Below, piece by piece: positions 55,844-63,930 of a stretch of 64,000 bases of DNA (the stretch's first letter is position 1; every line of letters begins with the position of its first letter). The DNA lies in the NCBI GenBank assembly GCA_963818965.1, contig CAWFUG010000009.1, forward strand, positions 442,075 through 506,074. Direction: 5' to 3'. Made by a program: the position numbers and the translations under genes. The notes under the pieces were generated by a model. The model worked only from the letters and a program-made list of their open reading frames with translations, did not search any database and was not told the DNA's origin. Source of the DNA: an uncultured Verrucomicrobiae bacterium. GTDB taxonomy: Bacteria > Chlamydiota > Chlamydiia > Chlamydiales > Rhabdochlamydiaceae.

Positions 55844-57757
55844 CTAGAGCTCTTCGATTGAGAGGGGCAAGCGATTGCGTCTTGCTCGGTAGCATAAGCC
55901 CAATACGATGCAGATGCCTGCGAGGGTCCAAATGACTATCCTGGGAAGGTTGAGGAATGGATAGCCTGGCTGTAGGGGATGTCCAAAGCGCGGTCCTGGA
56001 GGCCAAAAGATGAAGTCGGGGCCGCCGCGGAGGTTGTTTTGGGGGATGAACCCGAAGTCTCTACTATCAGAGCTCATCGCGTAGTTATCGCCGAGTCCTA
56101 AGTACATATCTTGTGGGATCACAAGCCCAGCGCTTCGGATGAGATCTCTATCGAGCGTTCCATCTTCTTTTAGAGGGGGGCCTAGATCTTCAAATGGCTG
56201 ATAGGGGTGTTGCGAAGGGGAAGCGGCTTTTCTCTCTCCCTCTTTTTCCAAAAAGGAGAGGAGCGTCGGGTCTTCCTTTTGTAAGATCGGTGCACCCATG
56301 ACATAGAGGTCACCAGAGCGGAAATAGGCGTAGCGCGCGGGAAAGAGGCGTTGGCCTTTGACTTGTGGAGAAAATCGGGTATCCCATTCGATTCCTAGGT
56401 TGAAGAGGAGTTGCACGGTTGCGGGCTCGAATCGATAGAGGGGATGATCTTCGGGGAGGGTTTTCGTGACTCCTTGCCAGAGGATCTGTTGCGCTTTGCC
56501 GTCGTAAAATTCATAAGTGCCGTCAGGGACATCGGTGAGTCTCGGTGCGAAGATGTTTTTAATCGCTGTCTTTGGATCGGCGCCATAGCGGAAGGCGATT
56601 CCATTTCTGACTTCGAAGCGGGCGGTATAGAGATTTTGGAAAAGGGTTCTGAGATGAGACTCTTGAAGGGGAATGAGTGAGGTGGAAAGGCCAAACGCGG
56701 GTCGGAGCCGCCCGTATTCATCGCGGATGAGTCGAACGGATGTGAGTGTCGGGTGGTGGTGAATTTCCAAATAGAGAAGGCCGTCTCCTAGAGACGCGGG
56801 GTCTTGATCGGTGAAGGATTTGACTTGATCTTTCTTGAGGAGTCGAACCATGGCGTAGTTTTTAATTCCCCATAGATCTCCGTAATCTGCGACCTGAGGT
56901 GTTTGCGGGGTGCGGATCTGGGCAGGGACGATCATCTCTCCTACGGCTTGGGTGCTTCCCTGCATCGAGAGCTTTACCACGGGTTCATTCATCTGATAGA
57001 CGAAGGCAGGGGAGTAGACGCCGTTTGTCGGTGCCGGAGGGAGGACGAGTTTGCGGTCGAAGTCGATAAAAGGGATGTGGTCGATTTTGTTTAAGATCTC
57101 TGGTTGAAGTTCCGACGTGATATCGTTCCCTTCTGCATCGATCCCGTAAATCAATCCTCCGTAAAAGTAGAGGGTATCTTGGGGTTTACCGATCAGGCGT
57201 TTGACGTACTGTTTTTTCCCGGGGAAGAGGTAGAAATAGAGGGTATCGACATCCCGGATGTCCATATTTTCCCCCGTGAAGATGATGATGTTGTTGCGCT
57301 GCACGAGGTTGGGATCGAAGTAAAAGGTATCGGGGACGAGTGGGATGTTGATCCCGAAGTCGGTCTTGGAGACGGCGAGGCGATCCTGTTCTTTGAAGGT
57401 CGGGCGCATCGAACCGGAGGGGATTTCGTAAAACTCAAACCACATCTGTCGGATCAAAACAGCGACGATTAAGGCAAAGCTGAGCGCAAAAATGAGCTCT
57501 TTGAGTTGATCCCAGCCTGTTTTTCTGAGGTGAATCAAACAGAGCGATTCGATGTGTTTGGCGAAAGTCGTTGCTTGAGATCTATCTTTTTTTAGGATCG
57601 CTTCTTGTAGAGGGAGGAGGGCTTCTTTGAGGGCTCTAAGAGCATCGGAAGAGAGGCGCTTCTTTTTTTTGAGAATGAGGTGGAAGGCGTGGCGTAAAAT
57701 CCGCTTGGATTTTTTTAAGCTGTATTCTTTAGAAAATAACATATGAGTCCTCTGCAA
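55844..57757 (-). CDS. lepB: Signal peptidase I (long chlamydial type)
   Basis: IPSGSMRPT, YVKRLIG, LGDNYAMSSDSRDFG. Confidence 0.95.
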   Translation of the reverse strand: MQRTHMLFSKEYSLKKSKRILRHAFHLILKKKKRLSSDALRALKEALLPLQEAILKKDRSQATTFAKHIESLCLIHLRKTGWDQLKELIFALSFALIVAVLIRQMWFEFYEIPSGSMRPTFKEQDRLAVSKTDFGINIPLVPDTFYFDPNLVQRNNIIIFTGENMDIRDVDTLYFYLFPGKKQYVKRLIGKPQDTLYFYGGLIYGIDAEGNDITSELQPEILNKIDHIPFIDFDRKLVLPPAPTNGVYSPAFVYQMNEPVVKLSMQGSTQAVGEMIVPAQIRTPQTPQVADYGDLWGIKNYAMVRLLKKDQVKSFTDQDPASLGDGLLYLEIHHHPTLTSVRLIRDEYGRLRPAFGLSTSLIPLQESHLRTLFQNLYTARFEVRNGIAFRYGADPKTAIKNIFAPRLTDVPDGTYEFYDGKAQQILWQGVTKTLPEDHPLYRFEPATVQLLFNLGIEWDTRFSPQVKGQRLFPARYAYFRSGDLYVMGAPILQKEDPTLLSFLEKEGERKAASPSQHPYQPFEDLGPPLKEDGTLDRDLIRSAGLVIPQDMYLGLGDNYAMSSDSRDFGFIPQNNLRGGPDFIFWPPGPRFGHPLQPGYPFLNLPRIVIWTLAGICIVLGLCYRARRNRLPLSIEEL

Positions 57758-57766
57758 GAGGACACT

Positions 57767-58378
57767 TTATCGAATCTTGAAAATGCGAGCAAGCTTTTGC
57801 GCTAGAGAGGGGGATATTTTTTTTTCCAATAAAGAGACGCTGGGATGAAGCGGGTCGACCTGGAAGGCGAGTTGGTAATACCCTTCTGCTTTTTCGTATT
57901 GTTTCTGTTCAGCAAAATAAAAGCCCATGACGACCATGAACCCCCTGAATTCTGCGTAGTGGTAGGTTTCCCGTTCAGGGTAGAGGGTGTTGAGGTCGGT
58001 GTGCTGGTCGAACACTTCGAGAACCTTTGCGACTTGTTTTGTGCGCAGGAGTTGGTCAGCGTAGTTGATTTTTGCGACGAGGGAGTCGGGGAAATCGCGG
58101 TAGGCTTTTTCGATGAGGGCCTCTGCTTGTTTTTTCTCTTTGCGTTGGAGGTGGGCAAAAGTGAGGAGGTTGACGAGGGCGAAGACCTGAGGGAATTTTT
58201 GATCGAGTATTACGAGCTCCTGGAAGTAGGCTTTTGGATCTTGATGAATTTTTTGAAGAGTATCCCACTCTTCCCGAGGAAGACCGGGAATATTCTCTTT
58301 TTCAAAAGAGATCGTATATCCTTTCCCGTAAAGGGAAAGAGGGGGGATATGAAAATTATTTTTCTTCAGAGAGGACAT
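57767..58378 (-). CDS. TPR-like hypothetical protein
   Basis: AKINYADQLL; MGFYFAEQKQYEKAEGYYQLAFQVDP. Confidence 0.65.
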   Translation of the reverse strand: MSSLKKNNFHIPPLSLYGKGYTISFEKENIPGLPREEWDTLQKIHQDPKAYFQELVILDQKFPQVFALVNLLTFAHLQRKEKKQAEALIEKAYRDFPDSLVAKINYADQLLRTKQVAKVLEVFDQHTDLNTLYPERETYHYAEFRGFMVVMGFYFAEQKQYEKAEGYYQLAFQVDPLHPSVSLLEKKISPSLAQKLARIFKIR

Positions 58379-59003
58379 TTACCTTATCTGTATCGATGCT
58401 GTAATAACCTCCTTTAATCTGGACCTGTTTTTTAGCAACAGCATCTGCAATAATGGAAGAGGCTTTCAGGTTTGCGATTCCCTGGCGTACGTTGCATTCT
58501 GTGGCACTCTTCAACCGGTTTGGTCCCTGATGGTCTAACGTGCAGGTTTTAAGCGCTTGGTCGATAATGGGGTAGATCGCATTGAGCTCTGCCAGGTGCT
58601 CTTTTCCTTTTAGCGTCGCCTCGACGGCCTTACAGTCTTGGTGGCCGAGGACGAAGATGAGAGGCACATGGAGGTTCTTGACGGCAAATTCTACACTATT
58701 GCGCTCTATTGGTCCAATGACATTTCCCGCGACACGCACGACGAAGAGGTCTCCGAGCCCCTGGTCGAAGATCACCTCAGGCGGGACCCGCGCGTCGGAG
58801 CAGCAGACCACGATCGCGAAGGGGAGCATTCCATTGCGCTTGGCATCTTTCGCTTCTGCTTGCAAAGAAGGGTGTGAATAATTTCCTTTAATGTAGCGTT
58901 CATGTCCTTGCATCAATTGGGATAAAGCAGATTCGGGTGTCTGTTCTTGAGCAGACAGAAAAATGGGGATTAAGCCTAAAAAAAGGGGGAGGAAAAATTT
59001 CAT
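58356..59003 (-). CDS. Beta-class carbonic anhydrase with signal peptide
   Basis: CSDARVPPE, GDLFVVRVAGN, LGHQDC. Confidence 0.92.
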   Translation of the reverse strand: MKFFLPLFLGLIPIFLSAQEQTPESALSQLMQGHERYIKGNYSHPSLQAEAKDAKRNGMLPFAIVVCCSDARVPPEVIFDQGLGDLFVVRVAGNVIGPIERNSVEFAVKNLHVPLIFVLGHQDCKAVEATLKGKEHLAELNAIYPIIDQALKTCTLDHQGPNRLKSATECNVRQGIANLKASSIIADAVAKKQVQIKGGYYSIDTDKVNVLSEEK

Positions 59004-59007
59004 TTTT

Positions 59008-60435
59008 TTATCCTTTGATGACCATGTGGGGGCACAGTCTTGCGACCCGATTGGCGAGCTGTGCTCGTTCGACAGCCTCGACCACCCTATCTACGTCTTT
59101 ATAGGCATCGGGCATTTCTTCTGCAACCGTTCTAAACGAGGAGGCAAGGACGATGACTCCCTGGCGTGCCATGACATCTGCGAGATCGTGCCCTTTCCAG
59201 GCAGCGGATGACTGGATCCGGCTGCGCGCTCTTCCCGCGCCGTGGCAGGAGCTCGCCCAAGTCAAAGGATTGCCGAGCCCGACCATGAGGTGGCTGGCAC
59301 GTCCCATGTCTCCGGGGACGAGGACGGGCTGCCCCGTTTTTTGAAAGAGGGGGGAGAGTTCCTCCGCATGAGGACCGAAAGCGCGCGTGGCTCCTTTGCG
59401 GTGGACGCAGAGTCGGCGCGGCTTGCCATCGACGAGATGGGTCTCGAATTTTGCGATATTATGGCAGACGTCGTAGATGAGACGGACGCGTTCGTGGGGG
59501 ATATTCAAGACCTCTTTAAACGCGTTGCGCACCTCGTGCAAAATGTGCTGTCGATTGTTGAATGCGAAATTCGCTGCTGCCGCCATGGCGCCGAAGTAGG
59601 TCTTCCCTGCAGGGCTTGTGATGGGAGCTGCGACGAGTTGCCGGTCGGGGAGGTCTTTGTCGTAGCCCTGTTGGATGAAGTCGTTCAATGTATCCTGACA
59701 CACTTGATGTCCAAAGCCTCTCGATCCTGAGTGGATGAGTAGATATGTAGATCCCGTCTCGACACCCCAGGCTTTTGCGATTTCTGGGAGGAAAATGTGG
59801 CCGACCTCTCCAATCTCTACGAAGTGATTTCCAGAGCCGATCGATCCCAGCTGATCTTTGCCGCGCGCTTTGGCCTGGAGTGAGACAGCATCGGGATCTG
59901 CGTCGGCGATTTGCCCGTTGCTCTCGCTGTGATCGAGATCGGCGAGGAGCCCGAATCCCTTTTCCAAAGACCAGCGCGCTCCCTTGCGTAGGAGTTCTTC
60001 ATAGTCCCTATCGCTCAAACCCCGCATGTTGAGGTGTCCTTTTCCTACCCCTGAGGGGACGTAATCGAAGATTTTTTGCAGCAGCTGTTTACGAATTCCT
60101 TCGCGGATCTTGGCGAAAGGCTCATCGATGAGAGCGAGGCGTACGCCGCAATTGATGTCGTAGCCGACGCCACCGGGGCTGATTACTCCCGTCTCGGCAT
60201 CCATGGCGGCGACGCCGCCAATCGGGAAACCGTAACCCCAGTGGATGTCGGGCATTGCGATGCTATAGCCGACGATACCGGGGAGATAAGCGACATTGCA
60301 GACTTGAGTCAACGGTTTTTCGATGGCGCAGTCTTCTAATAGCTCTTGCGTTGCGATGATTAGCCCCGGGACCCGCATCCCCGCCTTTTTGGGCATGAGG
60401 AAGGTCGCGGGCGCGATCTCTTGTAAATCAAACAT
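59008..60435 (-). CDS. rtcB: RNA-splicing ligase RtcB
   Basis: MPDIHWGYGFPIGG, GYDINCG, GSGNHF, HSGSRG, CHN, HRKGAT, CHGAGR, EEMPDAYKD. Confidence 0.96.
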   Translation of the reverse strand: MFDLQEIAPATFLMPKKAGMRVPGLIIATQELLEDCAIEKPLTQVCNVAYLPGIVGYSIAMPDIHWGYGFPIGGVAAMDAETGVISPGGVGYDINCGVRLALIDEPFAKIREGIRKQLLQKIFDYVPSGVGKGHLNMRGLSDRDYEELLRKGARWSLEKGFGLLADLDHSESNGQIADADPDAVSLQAKARGKDQLGSIGSGNHFVEIGEVGHIFLPEIAKAWGVETGSTYLLIHSGSRGFGHQVCQDTLNDFIQQGYDKDLPDRQLVAAPITSPAGKTYFGAMAAAANFAFNNRQHILHEVRNAFKEVLNIPHERVRLIYDVCHNIAKFETHLVDGKPRRLCVHRKGATRAFGPHAEELSPLFQKTGQPVLVPGDMGRASHLMVGLGNPLTWASSCHGAGRARSRIQSSAAWKGHDLADVMARQGVIVLASSFRTVAEEMPDAYKDVDRVVEAVERAQLANRVARLCPHMVIKG

Positions 60436-61231
60436 CGACGATCATCTCCCAATTGAGTAACTGTCTCTCATCTTCATAGAGCTCGCCATGAAAGCTAACG
60501 GCCTTCAAGGGACAGCCGATTTCAGCGTCGGCGCGCGAGACCATTTCATTTAATGCGATGACGATTTCAATTAAAGAATTTTTTAGGTCTAAATTGAAGT
60601 AAGAGGTAAATGGAGGAAACAAAAAACTGAGCGCCAGTTGTGCATGGAGGTAAACATCCCGCACCGTCTCTCCGCGGATGACAAAGGCGACATCTGCTGT
60701 ATGCTCGATCTCTTCAAACGGATCTAGCAGCGGAAAGGTCCAGAGGGGCTCGTAGTGTAGATTGCCCTTGCTCTCATAGAGAACGATCGCCTCCACAAAA
60801 AAGGGAAGGGGAGAGAACGCAGCTGTCCACGCCTCTTTAGCAAAAGGGCGTCGCGCGATAGAAATGTGGGGAAAAAAAGAGGCGTGATCGAGAGTGTAGC
60901 CGAGTGTTTTTAACCACGCGATGAGTCGCTCGCGGTAATGCATGAGGAGCTCTTCTCCCCGCAACCAACGCACAGTAGAAGCGACGACGCGCGCCGCGTC
61001 TTTCGGCAGAAAGACCAACCCTTCCTGAATACCACTGCAACCGAGAAGCGGTCCCGGTGTCGGAATTTCAAAGAGAGCTTTTTCCAACGCCGTCGCATCG
61101 CAATTGCCCAAAAATGCAAGGGTAATGTGTCTTGTCTTCTCAGGGATCAGTCTTCCTTCAGGGAAATACTCAGGCCAAGCAGATCTGACCTGAGCTCCAA
61201 AAAACAAGCGGCGCTGAGATGGACGCGTCAA
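60428..61231 (-). CDS. Fusion of a 2H phosphoesterase (ThpR/LigT-like) and archease
   Basis: RRLFFG, HITLAFLG, PHISIAR and LYES in the N-terminal ~165 aa; EHTADV...LKAVSFH...MIVDV in the C-terminal ~95 aa. Confidence 0.88.
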   Translation of the reverse strand: MTRPSQRRLFFGAQVRSAWPEYFPEGRLIPEKTRHITLAFLGNCDATALEKALFEIPTPGPLLGCSGIQEGLVFLPKDAARVVASTVRWLRGEELLMHYRERLIAWLKTLGYTLDHASFFPHISIARRPFAKEAWTAAFSPLPFFVEAIVLYESKGNLHYEPLWTFPLLDPFEEIEHTADVAFVIRGETVRDVYLHAQLALSFLFPPFTSYFNLDLKNSLIEIVIALNEMVSRADAEIGCPLKAVSFHGELYEDERQLLNWEMIVDV

Positions 61232-61234
61232 GAT

Positions 61235-61528
61235 TTAGTTCATCTCCCCAGAGTTGCCGTAGTCGCCCTGAGTTGTAGGGGGTACGTTCCTGCGGTTTGG
61301 CGTCGCATTTCTTTGCGAAGAGTTATCGTCACTATCCGTTTGTGGATTAGGGACGAAATCAGGCTCGTTTTCAGGGCTGTCTGATTGTGGATTGGGGACG
61401 AAATCGGGCTCGCTTTCCGGGAGGGCTGCTTGAGTAGAGCTTGGATTTTCTGGAAAGAGAGGTTCTGCCATCAACAACGGCGCGCTGCACAGAGCGAGAA
61501 AGCAAAAGCAAAGGTATTTCATAATCAC
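61235..61528 (-). CDS. Small exported low-complexity protein with a tandem repeat
   Basis: Signal peptide; EPDFVPNPQ twice at a 15-aa period; GAGG RBS. Confidence 0.7.
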   Translation of the reverse strand: MIMKYLCFCFLALCSAPLLMAEPLFPENPSSTQAALPESEPDFVPNPQSDSPENEPDFVPNPQTDSDDNSSQRNATPNRRNVPPTTQGDYGNSGEMN

Positions 61529-61617
61529 TCCTCAAAACGTGTTTATCTAGATCTTTTTAAGTCTTGCAAAATTCGCCAAATTCTGTAAAGTCAAAATTTT
61601 ATGGAGCAGCTGAGCTT

Positions 61618-62676
61618 ATGGCAGAAAATAGAGAAGTCGTGCTCGTCACAGGAGCCAGTGGGCGAATTGGGTTTAAGACGGCAGAGCGGTTTTCTAAAAA
61701 ATACCAGGTAATTGGACTCGATGTGCAGCTCGTCGGGAATCTCCCCAATGTGGAGTTCGTCTGTGCAGACATGGCATCAGACGAGAGTGTGAAAGCGGGG
61801 CTCGCCTACATCAAAAAAGAATATGGGACGCGAATCGTCTCAGTTATCCACCTTGCTGCTTACTATAGTTTTGCGCACAAATTCAGTCACGCCTACGATC
61901 AAATCACCGTCAAGGGGACAGAGCGCCTTTTGAACGAGCTCAAAGCTTTCGAGTGTGAGCAGTTCATCTTTTCTTCGACGATGCTCGTTGAAAAACCGAC
62001 ACGACCAGGTGTCAAGATCACAGAAGACAGCCCCCTCTCAGGCACATGGGGATACCCCCTTTCGAAAATCCAAACAGAAGCGAAGATTCACCAACTGCGG
62101 GGCAATACCCCTTCGGTCAATCTGCGCATTGCGGGAGTCTACGATAATCACTGCCATTCGATCCCTCTCTCGAATCAGATGCAGCGTATCTTCGAAAATC
62201 AGTTGGAGGCCCACGTCTTTGCCGGAGATGTCACGCATGGCGCCTCATTTGTCCACATGGATGATCTGATCGATGCCCTGTGGCTCTGTGTCGAAAAACG
62301 CAAACAATTACCCGAAGAACTCAATCTCTTGATCGGAGAAGATGTGACCCTCAGCTACGATCAGATCCAGAGGCTGATGGCCCGGCTCATCCACAACCGA
62401 GAATGGAAGACGTGGGGAGTCCCCAAACCCATCGCTAAAATTGGCGCCTGGTTCCAGCAGCATTTGCCCTTCATGAAACGCTCCTTCATTCAGCCGTGGA
62501 TGATCGATATCGCTGACGACCATTACGAGCTAGACATCACGCGCGCTAAAACACTGTTGGGGTGGGAGCCTAAGCATCGACTCGATCAAGTCATTCCTCG
62601 GTGGGTCGAAGAGTTAAAAAGAGACCCGATTACTTGGTACGATGAAAACAAACTCCAACGCCCTAGAAAAAAATAG
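61618..62676 (+). CDS. NAD-dependent epimerase/dehydratase family protein
   Basis: VTGASGRIG, HLAAYY, FSST, YPLSK. Confidence 0.9.
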   Translation: MAENREVVLVTGASGRIGFKTAERFSKKYQVIGLDVQLVGNLPNVEFVCADMASDESVKAGLAYIKKEYGTRIVSVIHLAAYYSFAHKFSHAYDQITVKGTERLLNELKAFECEQFIFSSTMLVEKPTRPGVKITEDSPLSGTWGYPLSKIQTEAKIHQLRGNTPSVNLRIAGVYDNHCHSIPLSNQMQRIFENQLEAHVFAGDVTHGASFVHMDDLIDALWLCVEKRKQLPEELNLLIGEDVTLSYDQIQRLMARLIHNREWKTWGVPKPIAKIGAWFQQHLPFMKRSFIQPWMIDIADDHYELDITRAKTLLGWEPKHRLDQVIPRWVEELKRDPITWYDENKLQRPRKK

Positions 62677-62679
62677 CTC

Positions 62680-63930
62680 ATGAAATCACGCACTGCCTAC
62701 TTGATCATCGCTCTAGGAGTTTGGCTCATCGCAGCTCCCTTGACCTTTTCGAGCCGGATCGACGGCTTTGGTTACTCTGATTTGTGCTCTGGACTCTTGC
62801 TCGTGATCTTAGGCGCTCTATCTATTGCCGAGCGGCGCGTTTGGTCGGGATGGGCAGTGGGGATCGTTGGCCTTTGGCTGCAGTTCGCGCCACTGCTCTT
62901 TTGGGCCCCTTCCGCGTGGATGTATCTGAACAATACCTTGATCGGCAGCATCGCCATCGTCCTTTGCTTCCAACTCGCAAAGGAACCTGTTCCAGCGATT
63001 GATGATGAGATGCCCCTCGGTTGGTCGTGCGCTCCCTCGACATGGAATTACCGCATTCCTACTGTGGGTCTGGCTATTTTGTGCTGGTTTTTCTCCCGCT
63101 ACATGGCAGCCTTTCAGCTGGGGTATATCGATCACATTTGGGACCCTTTTTTCAAAAACGGGACTCTCCACGTCATCACTTCCAAAATTTCCAAGGACTT
63201 CCCCGTCTCTGATGCAGGTCTGGGGGCTTTTTCCTATAGTTTAGAATTTTTATTAGGTTGGCAGGGAAGCACGCGTCGTTTTGCCACTATGCCCTGGTTA
63301 GTCCTCTTTTTTGGCTTCCTCGTCATCCCGGTCAGCGTCGTGAGTATTATGCTTATTATTTTACAACCCGTCGCAGTGGGAGCCTGGTGTTCTTGGTGTC
63401 TCGCTACGGCAGCTGTCATGCTCATCATGATCGTTCTGACAGCGGGCGAGCTCGCCGCAGCTCTCGAGCTGATGTACGACGCCAAACGGCGCAAAGACTC
63501 GCTATGGCAAGTCTTTTGGAAAGGGGAAAAAATAGACCCAGCCCTTGTGCAGCACAGAAAAGTTGAAAAGAGAGAGGGACTTGGCATCACCTTCCCGTGG
63601 AATCTCCTCCTGAGCATCCTCATCGGGATTTGGCTGATGGTCAGCCCCTCCCATCTCAATGTCGTAGGTGGCTTAGCGACGAGCGATTACATCTTAGGCC
63701 CTCTCGTCATCGCCTTTTCCGTCATGTCTCTGGCAGAGGTCTTCCGGTCTTTACGCTTCTGCAACCTCCTCTTCGGGTTGGGTCTCCTACTGGCCCCCCT
63801 GTTTACCTCCCACTCTTCAGCAGCGGGAATCGTCAATAATCTGCTCTTCGGAGCCCTGATTATCGCCCTTGCCTGGCGAAAAGGCAAAATTACCCAGCGT
63901 TATGGGTCCTGGGAACGACTTATTTTCTAG
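62680..63930 (+). CDS. Vitamin K epoxide reductase family membrane protein with SPW-like repeats
   Basis: WDPFF, FPVSDAGLG, WCSWC; repeated GxWL..P segments. Confidence 0.82.
   Translation: MKSRTAYLIIALGVWLIAAPLTFSSRIDGFGYSDLCSGLLLVILGALSIAERRVWSGWAVGIVGLWLQFAPLLFWAPSAWMYLNNTLIGSIAIVLCFQLAKEPVPAIDDEMPLGWSCAPSTWNYRIPTVGLAILCWFFSRYMAAFQLGYIDHIWDPFFKNGTLHVITSKISKDFPVSDAGLGAFSYSLEFLLGWQGSTRRFATMPWLVLFFGFLVIPVSVVSIMLIILQPVAVGAWCSWCLATAAVMLIMIVLTAGELAAALELMYDAKRRKDSLWQVFWKGEKIDPALVQHRKVEKREGLGITFPWNLLLSILIGIWLMVSPSHLNVVGGLATSDYILGPLVIAFSVMSLAEVFRSLRFCNLLFGLGLLLAPLFTSHSSAAGIVNNLLFGALIIALAWRKGKITQRYGSWERLIF

Follow-up and report, generated by a model that had tools for sequence, protein, structure and literature searches.

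ThpR/LigT enzymes are widespread 2H phosphoesterases whose biological role is unsettled, and to our knowledge ThpR is a stand-alone protein with no link to the RNA ligase RtcB. In fungi and plants, Trl1/AtRNL hold ligase, kinase, and 2H cyclic phosphodiesterase modules in one polypeptide. Here we analyze a chlamydial gene that joins a ThpR-type 2H domain to a short archease, the activator of RtcB, and that overlaps the start of rtcB. It lies in a 64,000-nucleotide stretch (the window) of contig CAWFUG010000009.1, positions 442,075 to 506,074, in assembly GCA_963818965.1 of an uncultured member of the Rhabdochlamydiaceae. The activator and an enzyme that opens cyclic phosphates have chemistries that should oppose each other. 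We propose that the product is a bifunctional protein in which the archease half activates RtcB and the 2H half is an active 2',3'-cyclic phosphodiesterase (CPDase), a reading to which we assign a probability of roughly 0.6.

Among the closest described arrangements is the archease-rtcB "tRNA splicing operon" of Pyrococcus horikoshii, Thermus thermophilus, and other prokaryotes, where, as here, archease adjoins an RtcB of the same type (parts of PMC3973293 and PMC4604427). In line with the original prediction made for this locus, the available portions of PMC3973293, PMC4604427, and PMC10944509 describe how archease activates RtcBs of the type found in P. horikoshii, T. thermophilus, and humans. 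Mutagenesis reported in these portions covers D12, D141, the C-terminal residue, H9, and K117 of P. horikoshii archease (PMC3973293) and D51, K156, and D178 of human archease (PMC10944509), and mutations of tip residues abolish RtcB activation in both. The fusion shares with prokaryotic archease and the human RTCB-Archease complex (PMC10944509; 8odo) the tip residues, namely Asp/His near the N terminus, a Lys, a penultimate Asp, and a free C terminus, and its tip is likewise predicted to lie in the RtcB active site. Our locus differs from both operon and human complex in that its archease has about 99 rather than about 136 to 140 residues and forms the C-terminal domain of a larger enzyme, and from the operon in that the last archease codons overlap the rtcB start. 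The available portions of these three papers make no mention of a 2H-archease fusion.

The other half recalls Escherichia coli ThpR (LigT/YadP; PMC4201822; 4qak, 5ldi). According to sections of that paper, HxTxxF together with HxTxxR forms the ThpR signature, in which neither His nor the Arg can be spared, and the enzyme makes a 2'-phosphate. RtcB leaves a 2'-PO4 end unsealed, in keeping with the original prediction, which held 2'-phosphates not to be its preferred substrate. E. coli, according to the same authors, lacks intron-containing tRNAs and also any ligase for the ThpR product. The fused domain shares with E. coli ThpR the fold, both extended motifs, and a full-length profile match, and it differs in scoring under the equivalog cut-off, in its added C-terminal archease, and in its fixed place beside rtcB. 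A functional parallel exists in mammals, where the 2H CPDase CNP withdraws substrate from RTCB by turning 2',3'-cyclic phosphate (>p) ends into 2'-phosphates (passages of the review PMC13247085). In that system of CNP, RTCA, and ANGEL2, as in the one proposed here, a 2H enzyme competes with the ligase for the >p end; however, the mammalian proteins are separate and RTCA reverses CNP, whereas here the presumed antagonist is fused to the activator and a cyclase was not found. In the literature searched, neither a 2H-archease fusion nor a chlamydial RtcB was described, and an earlier mention in comparative surveys is possible. The parts are known; their combination is apparently uncharacterized in the literature searched.

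Conservation of the fusion and its linkage to rtcB

The fusion is genuine and is conserved in environmental chlamydiae. A word-indexed protein search returned 686 relatives, from chlamydial metagenome-assembled genomes (MAGs) and under names such as "hypothetical protein," "2'-5' RNA ligase," and "RNA 2',3'-cyclic 3'-phosphodiesterase"; the best 120 of the 686 are 240 to 300 amino acids long and 44 to 62% identical to the query, with the window's own copy at 100%. An exhaustive search of representatives (clusters at 50% identity) gave 323 matches at E ≤ 1e-3, of which 183 reach E ≤ 1e-30; few of the matches fall short of full length. When the original prediction's call to map the distribution of the architecture was followed in an even sample of the phylum, the fusion appeared in 181 of 400 genomes (about 45%) and 110 of 212 genera, as frames of about 260 to 290 amino acids, with an internal stop in 2 of the 150 matches listed. 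A scan of GTDB species genomes with the patterns [ED]HTAD.. and P[FL]KA[VI]S[FY]HG retrieved 173 loci; the best 80 of these, on which the linkage counts for public loci rest, are labeled Rhabdochlamydia, Parachlamydiaceae, Waddliaceae, Simkania, and "Verrucomicrobia" MAGs, and all are chlamydial or PVC-MAG.

The window comes from a MAG of 12 contigs that is 87.85% complete, and a sequencing error in such an assembly could join two genes into one, an outcome that the original prediction had named as fatal to it. Because uninterrupted fusion frames recur across the phylum (the 181 genomes, 686 proteins, and 323 clusters above), an assembly or gene-calling artifact is ruled out, and the probability that we leave to it is negligible. 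The predicted 267-amino-acid frame itself, with HITL and HISI followed by an archease with EHTAD, KAVSFH, and a terminal DV, was located base by base (Table 1). Its start is uncertain by 8 codons: a second TTG lies 8 codons in, and the database copy P0001 has 259 amino acids. The longer TTG start agrees with the conservation of R8 in the relatives.

The downstream neighbor is nearly always rtcB. Twenty-four of 41 relatives carry the fusion, and in 22 of the 24 an RtcB orthologue (63 to 100% identity) follows directly on the same strand; the exceptions are G030, with a stand-alone ThpR only, and G035 (G numbers are our genome labels). The best 80 public loci have rtcB directly downstream in 78 cases, and the other 2 end at a contig edge 15 to 16 nt past the fusion. 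In the window the two genes overlap by 8 nt (60428-60435), the rtcB ATG lying within the closing GAT-GTT-TGA of the fusion, just as first described; the same overlap, formed by the Asp-Val codons, recurs in 65 of the 78 rtcB-linked loci.

Across the phylum sample, RtcB orthologues (called at E ≤ 1e-100) occur in 163 of 400 genomes. Their tally equals that of the fusion in families f1 (45 of 89 genomes, by eye the same 45), f5 (35/69), f19 (9/23), f21 (5/5), f28 (4/5), f16 (2/2), f37 (1/17), and f20 (0/29). The tallies of fusion and RtcB are unequal in f23 (22 versus 12), f22 (30 versus 24), f12 (1 versus 0), f25 (6 versus 5), f32 (3 versus 2), and f3 (5 versus 6). The fusion-rtcB pair is usually present or missing as a unit.

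The linkage has to be weighed against an incidental origin, in which a housekeeping ThpR gene upstream of archease-rtcB lost its stop and the two halves do unrelated jobs, merely being expressed together in a compact genome. The flanks of the 80 public loci fit this idea, in that they are variable and contain no third conserved partner gene beside the pair (the largest upstream cluster, a divergent epimerase, covers 16 loci, and the largest downstream cluster, a carbonic anhydrase, covers 9). It also fits that archease has been joined to another partner in G026, a genome of another chlamydial family, where a full-length archease (Pfam positions 1-136, E=1.4e-38) stands behind a cytidylate kinase (Cmk; E=6e-68) as the C-terminal domain of a 381-amino-acid open reading frame (ORF) at L091:573-1718 (+) (G026:C19). 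The G026 RtcB, 46% identical, is convergent with this ORF (L091:1723-3171, minus strand), and a canonical ThpR is encoded elsewhere in that genome; Cmk-archease is a second, different archease fusion in the phylum. On the other hand, families such as f1, f5, and f19 lack the 2H-archease fusion wherever they lack rtcB, a pattern not expected of a housekeeping enzyme, and the fused 2H domain has diverged from canonical ThpR, a copy of which G001 encodes besides the fusion. We consider an incidental fusion unlikely, and take it up again below with the structural evidence.

Some individual copies deserve mention in their own right. Downstream of the fusion at L046 (CAVQKJ010000004.1), RtcB aligns from residue 77 only, at 42% identity versus 63 to 77% in other complete copies; either divergence or an insertion may account for this. 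In G001, the only other genome of the window's genus, rtcB gives two overlapping matches in different frames, residues 3-275 and 269-475, and therefore holds a frameshift or an assembly error; an extra canonical ThpR is encoded there as well (for the two genes together, G001:C134:1876-3280, minus strand, and G001:C86:2240-2743, plus strand). The protein P0234 (775 amino acids) matches fusion residues 96-267 with its C-terminal 172 residues and has bacterial TSP3 repeats in its N-terminal part; chimeric gene calling on a fragment is its likely origin.

The archease half and its predicted docking in RtcB

The Pfam Archease profile (PF01951) matches residues 172-202 at its positions 1-31 of 136, a marginal score (E=1e-5, 26.3 bits versus a cut-off of 25). 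The structural evidence is broader. The AlphaFold2 (AF2) model of the fusion, built with 35 homologues, is compact (pLDDT 94.3, pTM 0.90); Foldseek on the whole model listed 2H chains only, and archease surfaced with the exhaustive VIA search. There, residues 177-267 match the Thermotoga maritima archease 1j5u (Z 9.8, 85 aligned, root mean square deviation [rmsd] 2.9), human archease 8odo_B aligns with residues 169-267 (Z 8.0, 95 aligned, rmsd 3.4), and archease 1jw3 follows (Z 7.3, 94 aligned, rmsd 3.1), with the next unrelated row at Z 4.7. By sequence, the family profile A1 finds T. maritima archease at E=1.3e-3.

Because of its length of about 99 residues, instead of the 136 to 140 of the full-length protein, we file this domain as a minimal archease variant; the canonical chlamydial archease in G026, by comparison, matches profile positions 1-136. 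Comparing A1 with that canonical archease (profile against sequence) gives a probability of 15% (E=0.0017) and puts KAVSFHG on a strand other than the one that motif likeness suggests. A global alignment of the minimal and canonical forms does not place the deletion of about 40 residues any better.

The metal-binding tip of archease is recognizable in H177, D180, K243, D266, and the C-terminal end at V267. H177, T178, D180, K243, S246, H248, G249, and D266 are invariant in A1, whose 35 homologues were gathered by homology and not by motif. W261, D266, and V267 are found in 78/78 rtcB-linked loci, and none of these three lies within the search patterns. The P. horikoshii residues H9 and D12 probably have their counterparts in H177 and D180. 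K243 probably takes the place of K117 in P. horikoshii and K156 in human archease, a correspondence for which the sequence alignments are ambiguous. D266 and the V267 end are likely equivalents of tip residues mutated in P. horikoshii and human archease.

The adjoining RtcB is covered over its full length by the Pfam RtcB profile (PF01139; positions 1-426 of 426, E=9.3e-152). Its nearest solved chains are those of T. thermophilus (2epg, 8.5e-136), P. horikoshii (1uc2, 3.6e-131), and human (8odo_A, 1.2e-108), and it is most like the archease-dependent RtcBs. C96, H204, H235, H325, and H398, which we take to be the catalytic residues, are invariant in the RtcB alignment A2.

The complex prediction that had been suggested as a check was run with a 26-row alignment for RtcB, 35 rows for the fusion, and three controls. 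It gave an ipSAE of 0.75 (runs 0.72, 0.75, and 0.76) versus 0.00 for the best control; of 157 solved complexes 116 attain this mark, as do 2 of 215 mismatched pairs. Runs share at least 85% of contacts, and the partner pLDDT is at least 87. All contact residues of the fusion fall within 174-267, that is, in the archease half, and include 176-181, 243-244, 246-249, 264, and 266-267. They face RtcB residues around 65-68, 92, 187-202, 240-268, and 402-408. The archease tip is thus predicted by the model to dock in the RtcB active site.

A second line of evidence comes from copies of the fusion without a linked rtcB. Fourteen were fetched (L094-L098, L102-L106, and L110-L113). Two are second, unlinked copies in G096 and G173, beside an intact fusion-rtcB pair, and the rest come from genomes in which no RtcB orthologue was found: G035, G185, G348, G297, G343, G080, G137, G069, G070, G076, G176, and G087. 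G080, G137, G069, G070, and G076 belong to genus g59, and G176 and G087 to genus g73; the G297 and G343 copies are cut off just after the 2H domain. In the first 10 copies the 2H residues are kept (H35 in 9/10, T37 in 10/10, H122 in 10/10, T124 in 10/10, R127 in 9/10), and the tip has decayed (H177 in 0/10, K243 in 2/10, D266 in 2/10, V267 in 1/10). By eye, none of the remaining 4 has a full archease tip, G087 retaining the His. Because none of the 14 unlinked copies keeps the whole tip, the tip depends on the presence of rtcB, and the archease half appears to serve RtcB; linkage, tip decay, and the complex model together form an indirect basis from which we infer that it activates the ligase. 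By the same comparison the 2H half can be retained in its own right and work alone, because its residues persist in copies without linked rtcB.

The unlinked copies also bear on whether the two halves came together by chance. A 2H half that persists with a decayed tip, in lineages and paralogues without rtcB, is what an incidental fusion with unrelated jobs would allow. However, the halves of the window's protein are predicted to pack rigidly, and the model of the unlinked G096 copy (pLDDT 86.3, pTM 0.87; 2H Z 15.5; archease Z 7.4, 7.4, and 6.0) suggests that the two-domain fold is retained, with a "pseudo-archease" as structural partner. Because an archease-like fold is kept even with a dead tip, the domains appear to be structurally interdependent, a point against an incidental fusion.

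Within g59, the paralogues L112 (G173:C84:2106-2885) and L113 (G096:C1:1675631-1676410) are of the "2H + pseudo-archease" form and unlinked to rtcB. Ten other g59 genomes of the sample appear to carry a relative of the fusion without an RtcB orthologue, and the 5 checked have the decayed form.

The 2H half

With the whole model, Foldseek returned the Deinococcus radiodurans CPDase and E. coli ThpR/LigT (5h7e, E=1.7e-9; 5ldm, E=1.7e-8; down to about 1e-7). VIA aligned residues 1-189 with 5h7f, the CPDase of D. radiodurans (Z 14.9, 165 aligned, rmsd 3.7), followed by the 2H matches 1vgj (Z 14.7) and 4qak (Z 14.2), and the 2H fold spans residues of about 5-170. The family profile A1 matched E. 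coli ThpR (5ldi) over its whole length (E=4.4e-6, residues 5-168). Both H-x-T/S motifs are present, as H35-x-T37 and H122-x-S124, as are the extended forms HxTxxF and HxTxxR. H35, T37, F40, H122, and R127 are invariant in A1 (35 homologues). Among the rtcB-linked loci, H122, R127, and S/T124 each occur in 78/78, and H35 and T37 each in 77/78, where the exception is a gap.

This conservation suggests that the 2H half is a catalytically competent CPDase, with a 2'-phosphate as the expected product. The original prediction had allowed that the domain might prove inactive and dispensable; to the extent that motifs can tell, inactivity is excluded, and that part of the caveat falls. A related alternative makes the 2H domain a noncatalytic scaffold, RNA-end binding or purely structural, that replaces the lost part of archease. 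The archease does lack about 40 residues and packs against the 2H domain, a point in favor of such a role. Yet both His, both Thr/Ser, and the Arg are kept in 77-78 of 78 linked and 9-10 of 10 unlinked copies, and because the catalytic residues are conserved in both groups, a noncatalytic domain is hard to uphold; we rate it as very improbable.

A different alternative accepts catalysis and changes its regiochemistry, such that RNA>p would be opened to a 3'-phosphate, a direct substrate of RtcB, bypassing the GTP-dependent cyclic phosphodiesterase step of RtcB. The 2H enzyme Usb1 of yeast does yield a 3'-phosphate. A domain that fed RtcB in this way would resolve the chemical paradox and explain both the tight linkage and the co-loss with rtcB, and the domain is in fact divergent from ThpR equivalogs. 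Against this, the ThpR geometry residues (HxTxxF, HxTxxR) are all kept, the closest fold matches are ThpR-type enzymes, and ThpR arrives at a 2'-phosphate through protonation of the leaving O3' by its proximal His (section of PMC4201822). We regard a switch to 3'-phosphate as improbable, well behind an incidental fusion, and retain the view of a 2'-phosphate-forming CPDase.

RNA repair repertoire and a possible mechanism

What happens to a 2'-phosphate depends on the other repair genes. The 87.85%-complete assembly, on which all genome-wide absences given here are based, has no archease and no ThpR-like match apart from the fusion. RtcA (PF01137) and RtcR (PF06956) were not found in it, with controls positive in E. 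coli; the lack of rtcA and rtcR first noticed in the window thus extends to the whole assembly, which in this respect differs from the E. coli-type rtcBA-rtcR operon with its RtcA cyclase and RtcR regulator. Tpt1 (PF01885), RNA_ligase (PF09414), and tRNA splicing endonuclease (PF01974) were likewise not found. Like Trl1/AtRNL, the fusion places a 2H cyclic phosphodiesterase inside an RNA repair polypeptide; there, however, the 2'-phosphate is needed by an ATP-dependent ligase and is removed by Tpt1, whereas here RtcB cannot use it. Because RtcA, Tpt1, and PF09414 were not found, a 2'-phosphate would have no evident route back to ligation.

Two other candidates were considered and rejected. A yeast-like pathway for 2'-phosphate ends was dismissed on the failure to find Tpt1 and RNA_ligase. 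Protein-spliced tRNA introns as the substrate were dismissed because PF01974 was not found and both intron calls of aragorn -i, in tRNA-Thr(UGU) (271 nt) and tRNA-Met (11 nt), were deemed false positives. The tRNA-Thr(UGU) call lies at G000:C8:130695-131064 (-), after the anticodon loop; it is probably false because an intron-less tRNA-Thr(UGU) gene on C11 duplicates it.

We can now outline how a protein that both activates RtcB and opens cyclic phosphates might work. The fusion and RtcB would be made together from the overlapping gene pair. The tip (H177, D180, K243, D266, and the terminal carboxylate of V267) would insert in the RtcB active site and promote guanylylation and turnover, and the 2H half would open RNA>p ends to 2'-phosphates that RtcB cannot seal. 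One polypeptide would then carry a co-factor that seals and an enzyme that withdraws the same broken end, and in this genome the 2'-phosphate branch would be terminal. In the reading that we prefer, a triage, breaks that are held together, as in nicked tRNA or rRNA, would be sealed fast, and leftover >p ends would be capped as 2'-phosphates; capping would prevent mis-ligation, circularization, and GTP-wasting cycles. This triage logic, drawn by analogy from CNP antagonism of RTCB, is the weakest step of the proposal, and we offer it tentatively, as less likely than not on its own. A built-in triage device, in which any >p end not sealed in time passes irreversibly to a 2'-phosphate with no re-cyclizing, removal, or ligation, is more doubtful still.

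Several points weigh against the bifunctional reading or the interplay that it suggests. The 2H half scores under curated cut-offs, both for LigT_PEase (PF02834; E=0.005, 17.4 bits versus 23.3, Pfam scan) and for TIGR02258 (E=1.3e-9, 38.2 bits versus 65.7, residues 20-166, NCBIfam); the fused copies among the 41 relatives are all under the NCBIfam cut-off, and three stand-alone ThpR genes are above it. Because of these scores we file it as a divergent ThpR-like domain and not as a ThpR equivalog. The assignment of its product as 2'-phosphate and not 3'-phosphate comes from motif conservation by itself, and G001, of the same genus as the window, has a canonical ThpR above the NCBIfam cut-off besides the fusion. 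On the archease side, the domain is short, with Pfam aligning 31/136 profile positions. The conservation of EHTAD and KAVSFHG among the 80 public loci is partly circular, because patterns with these motifs selected them, and the 14 unlinked copies were taken from weaker-scoring hits. The complex score of 0.75 shows likeness and may be a memory, because the human RTCB-archease complex (8odo) has already been solved.

The evidence on interplay between the 2H half and RtcB cuts both ways. Co-loss with rtcB in most families favors it and speaks against an essential independent role of the 2H half. On the other side, the 2H half survives without RtcB in g59, g73, G035, G297, and G343, and the complex model has no contact between the 2H half and RtcB, which would also suit a fusion of two unrelated jobs.

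Feature coordinates and neighboring genes

Coordinates of the features discussed are collected in Table 1. Upstream, a 97-amino-acid ORF at 61235-61528 (-) ends 3 nt before the fusion TTG. It has a signal-peptide-like N terminus and two PDFVPNPQ-type repeats; it has no Pfam match, is not conserved upstream in most relatives, and is a possible first gene of the operon. Scans of 57500-62000 gave 4 promoter-like sites versus 2.7±1.5 in shuffles and 4 terminator-like sites versus 5.6±2.1, counts that carry no information on operon boundaries. Farther out, a 416-amino-acid membrane protein at 62680-63930 (+) has both SPW repeat domains (E=3.1e-19) and a vitamin K epoxide reductase domain (E=4.6e-18), and a signal peptidase I at 55844-57757 (-) is unusually long at 637 amino acids, with the S26 domain matched in two stretches.

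Table 1. Positions in the window of the fusion gene, its domains and motifs, and rtcB
Feature	Position	Strand	Basis
Fusion gene, ThpR-type 2H phosphoesterase + minimal archease	60428..61231	-	ORF of 267 aa, TTG start; AF2 model; fold matches
rtcB, RNA 3'-phosphate/5'-OH ligase, archease-dependent type	59008..60435	-	475 aa, ATG start; Pfam RtcB
2H phosphoesterase domain, ~residues 1-168	60728..61231	-	TIGR02258; profile A1 vs 5ldi; VIA
Minimal archease domain, ~residues 169-267	60431..60727	-	PF01951; VIA; all predicted RtcB contacts in 174-267
Proximal catalytic motif H35-I-T-L-A-F40 (HxTxxF)	61112..61129	-	read base by base
Distal catalytic motif H122-I-S-I-A-R127 (Hx[ST]xxR)	60851..60868	-	read base by base
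E176-H-T-A-D180, N-terminal strand of archease tip	60692..60706	-	read base by base
K243-A-V-S-F-H248	60488..60505	-	read base by base
D266-V267 (60431-60436) + stop, GAT-GTT-TGA containing the rtcB ATG	60428..60436	-	read base by base

Implications

What this analysis adds is the phylum-wide co-occurrence of fusion and RtcB, the decay of the tip with retention of the fold in copies without rtcB, and the Cmk-archease fusion. The RtcB-less "pseudo-archease" copies provide a natural control for structure-function work, and the minimal form tells which portion of archease can be spared. In about 45% of the phylum's sampled genomes a ThpR-type domain is physically joined to the RtcB pathway, a concrete and readily testable setting for studying the effect of ThpR chemistry on repair by RtcB. 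If the proposed triage is true, RNA repair in an energy parasite would be confined to a time window and passed through a fidelity filter, and cycles that waste GTP would be stopped. The fusion would also be the first case of an RtcB activator physically coupled to an antagonist of RtcB, and ThpR, an enzyme without a known biological role, would gain a defined pathway. The fusion also prompts one to ask which RNA breaks have to be mended in obligate intracellular chlamydiae.

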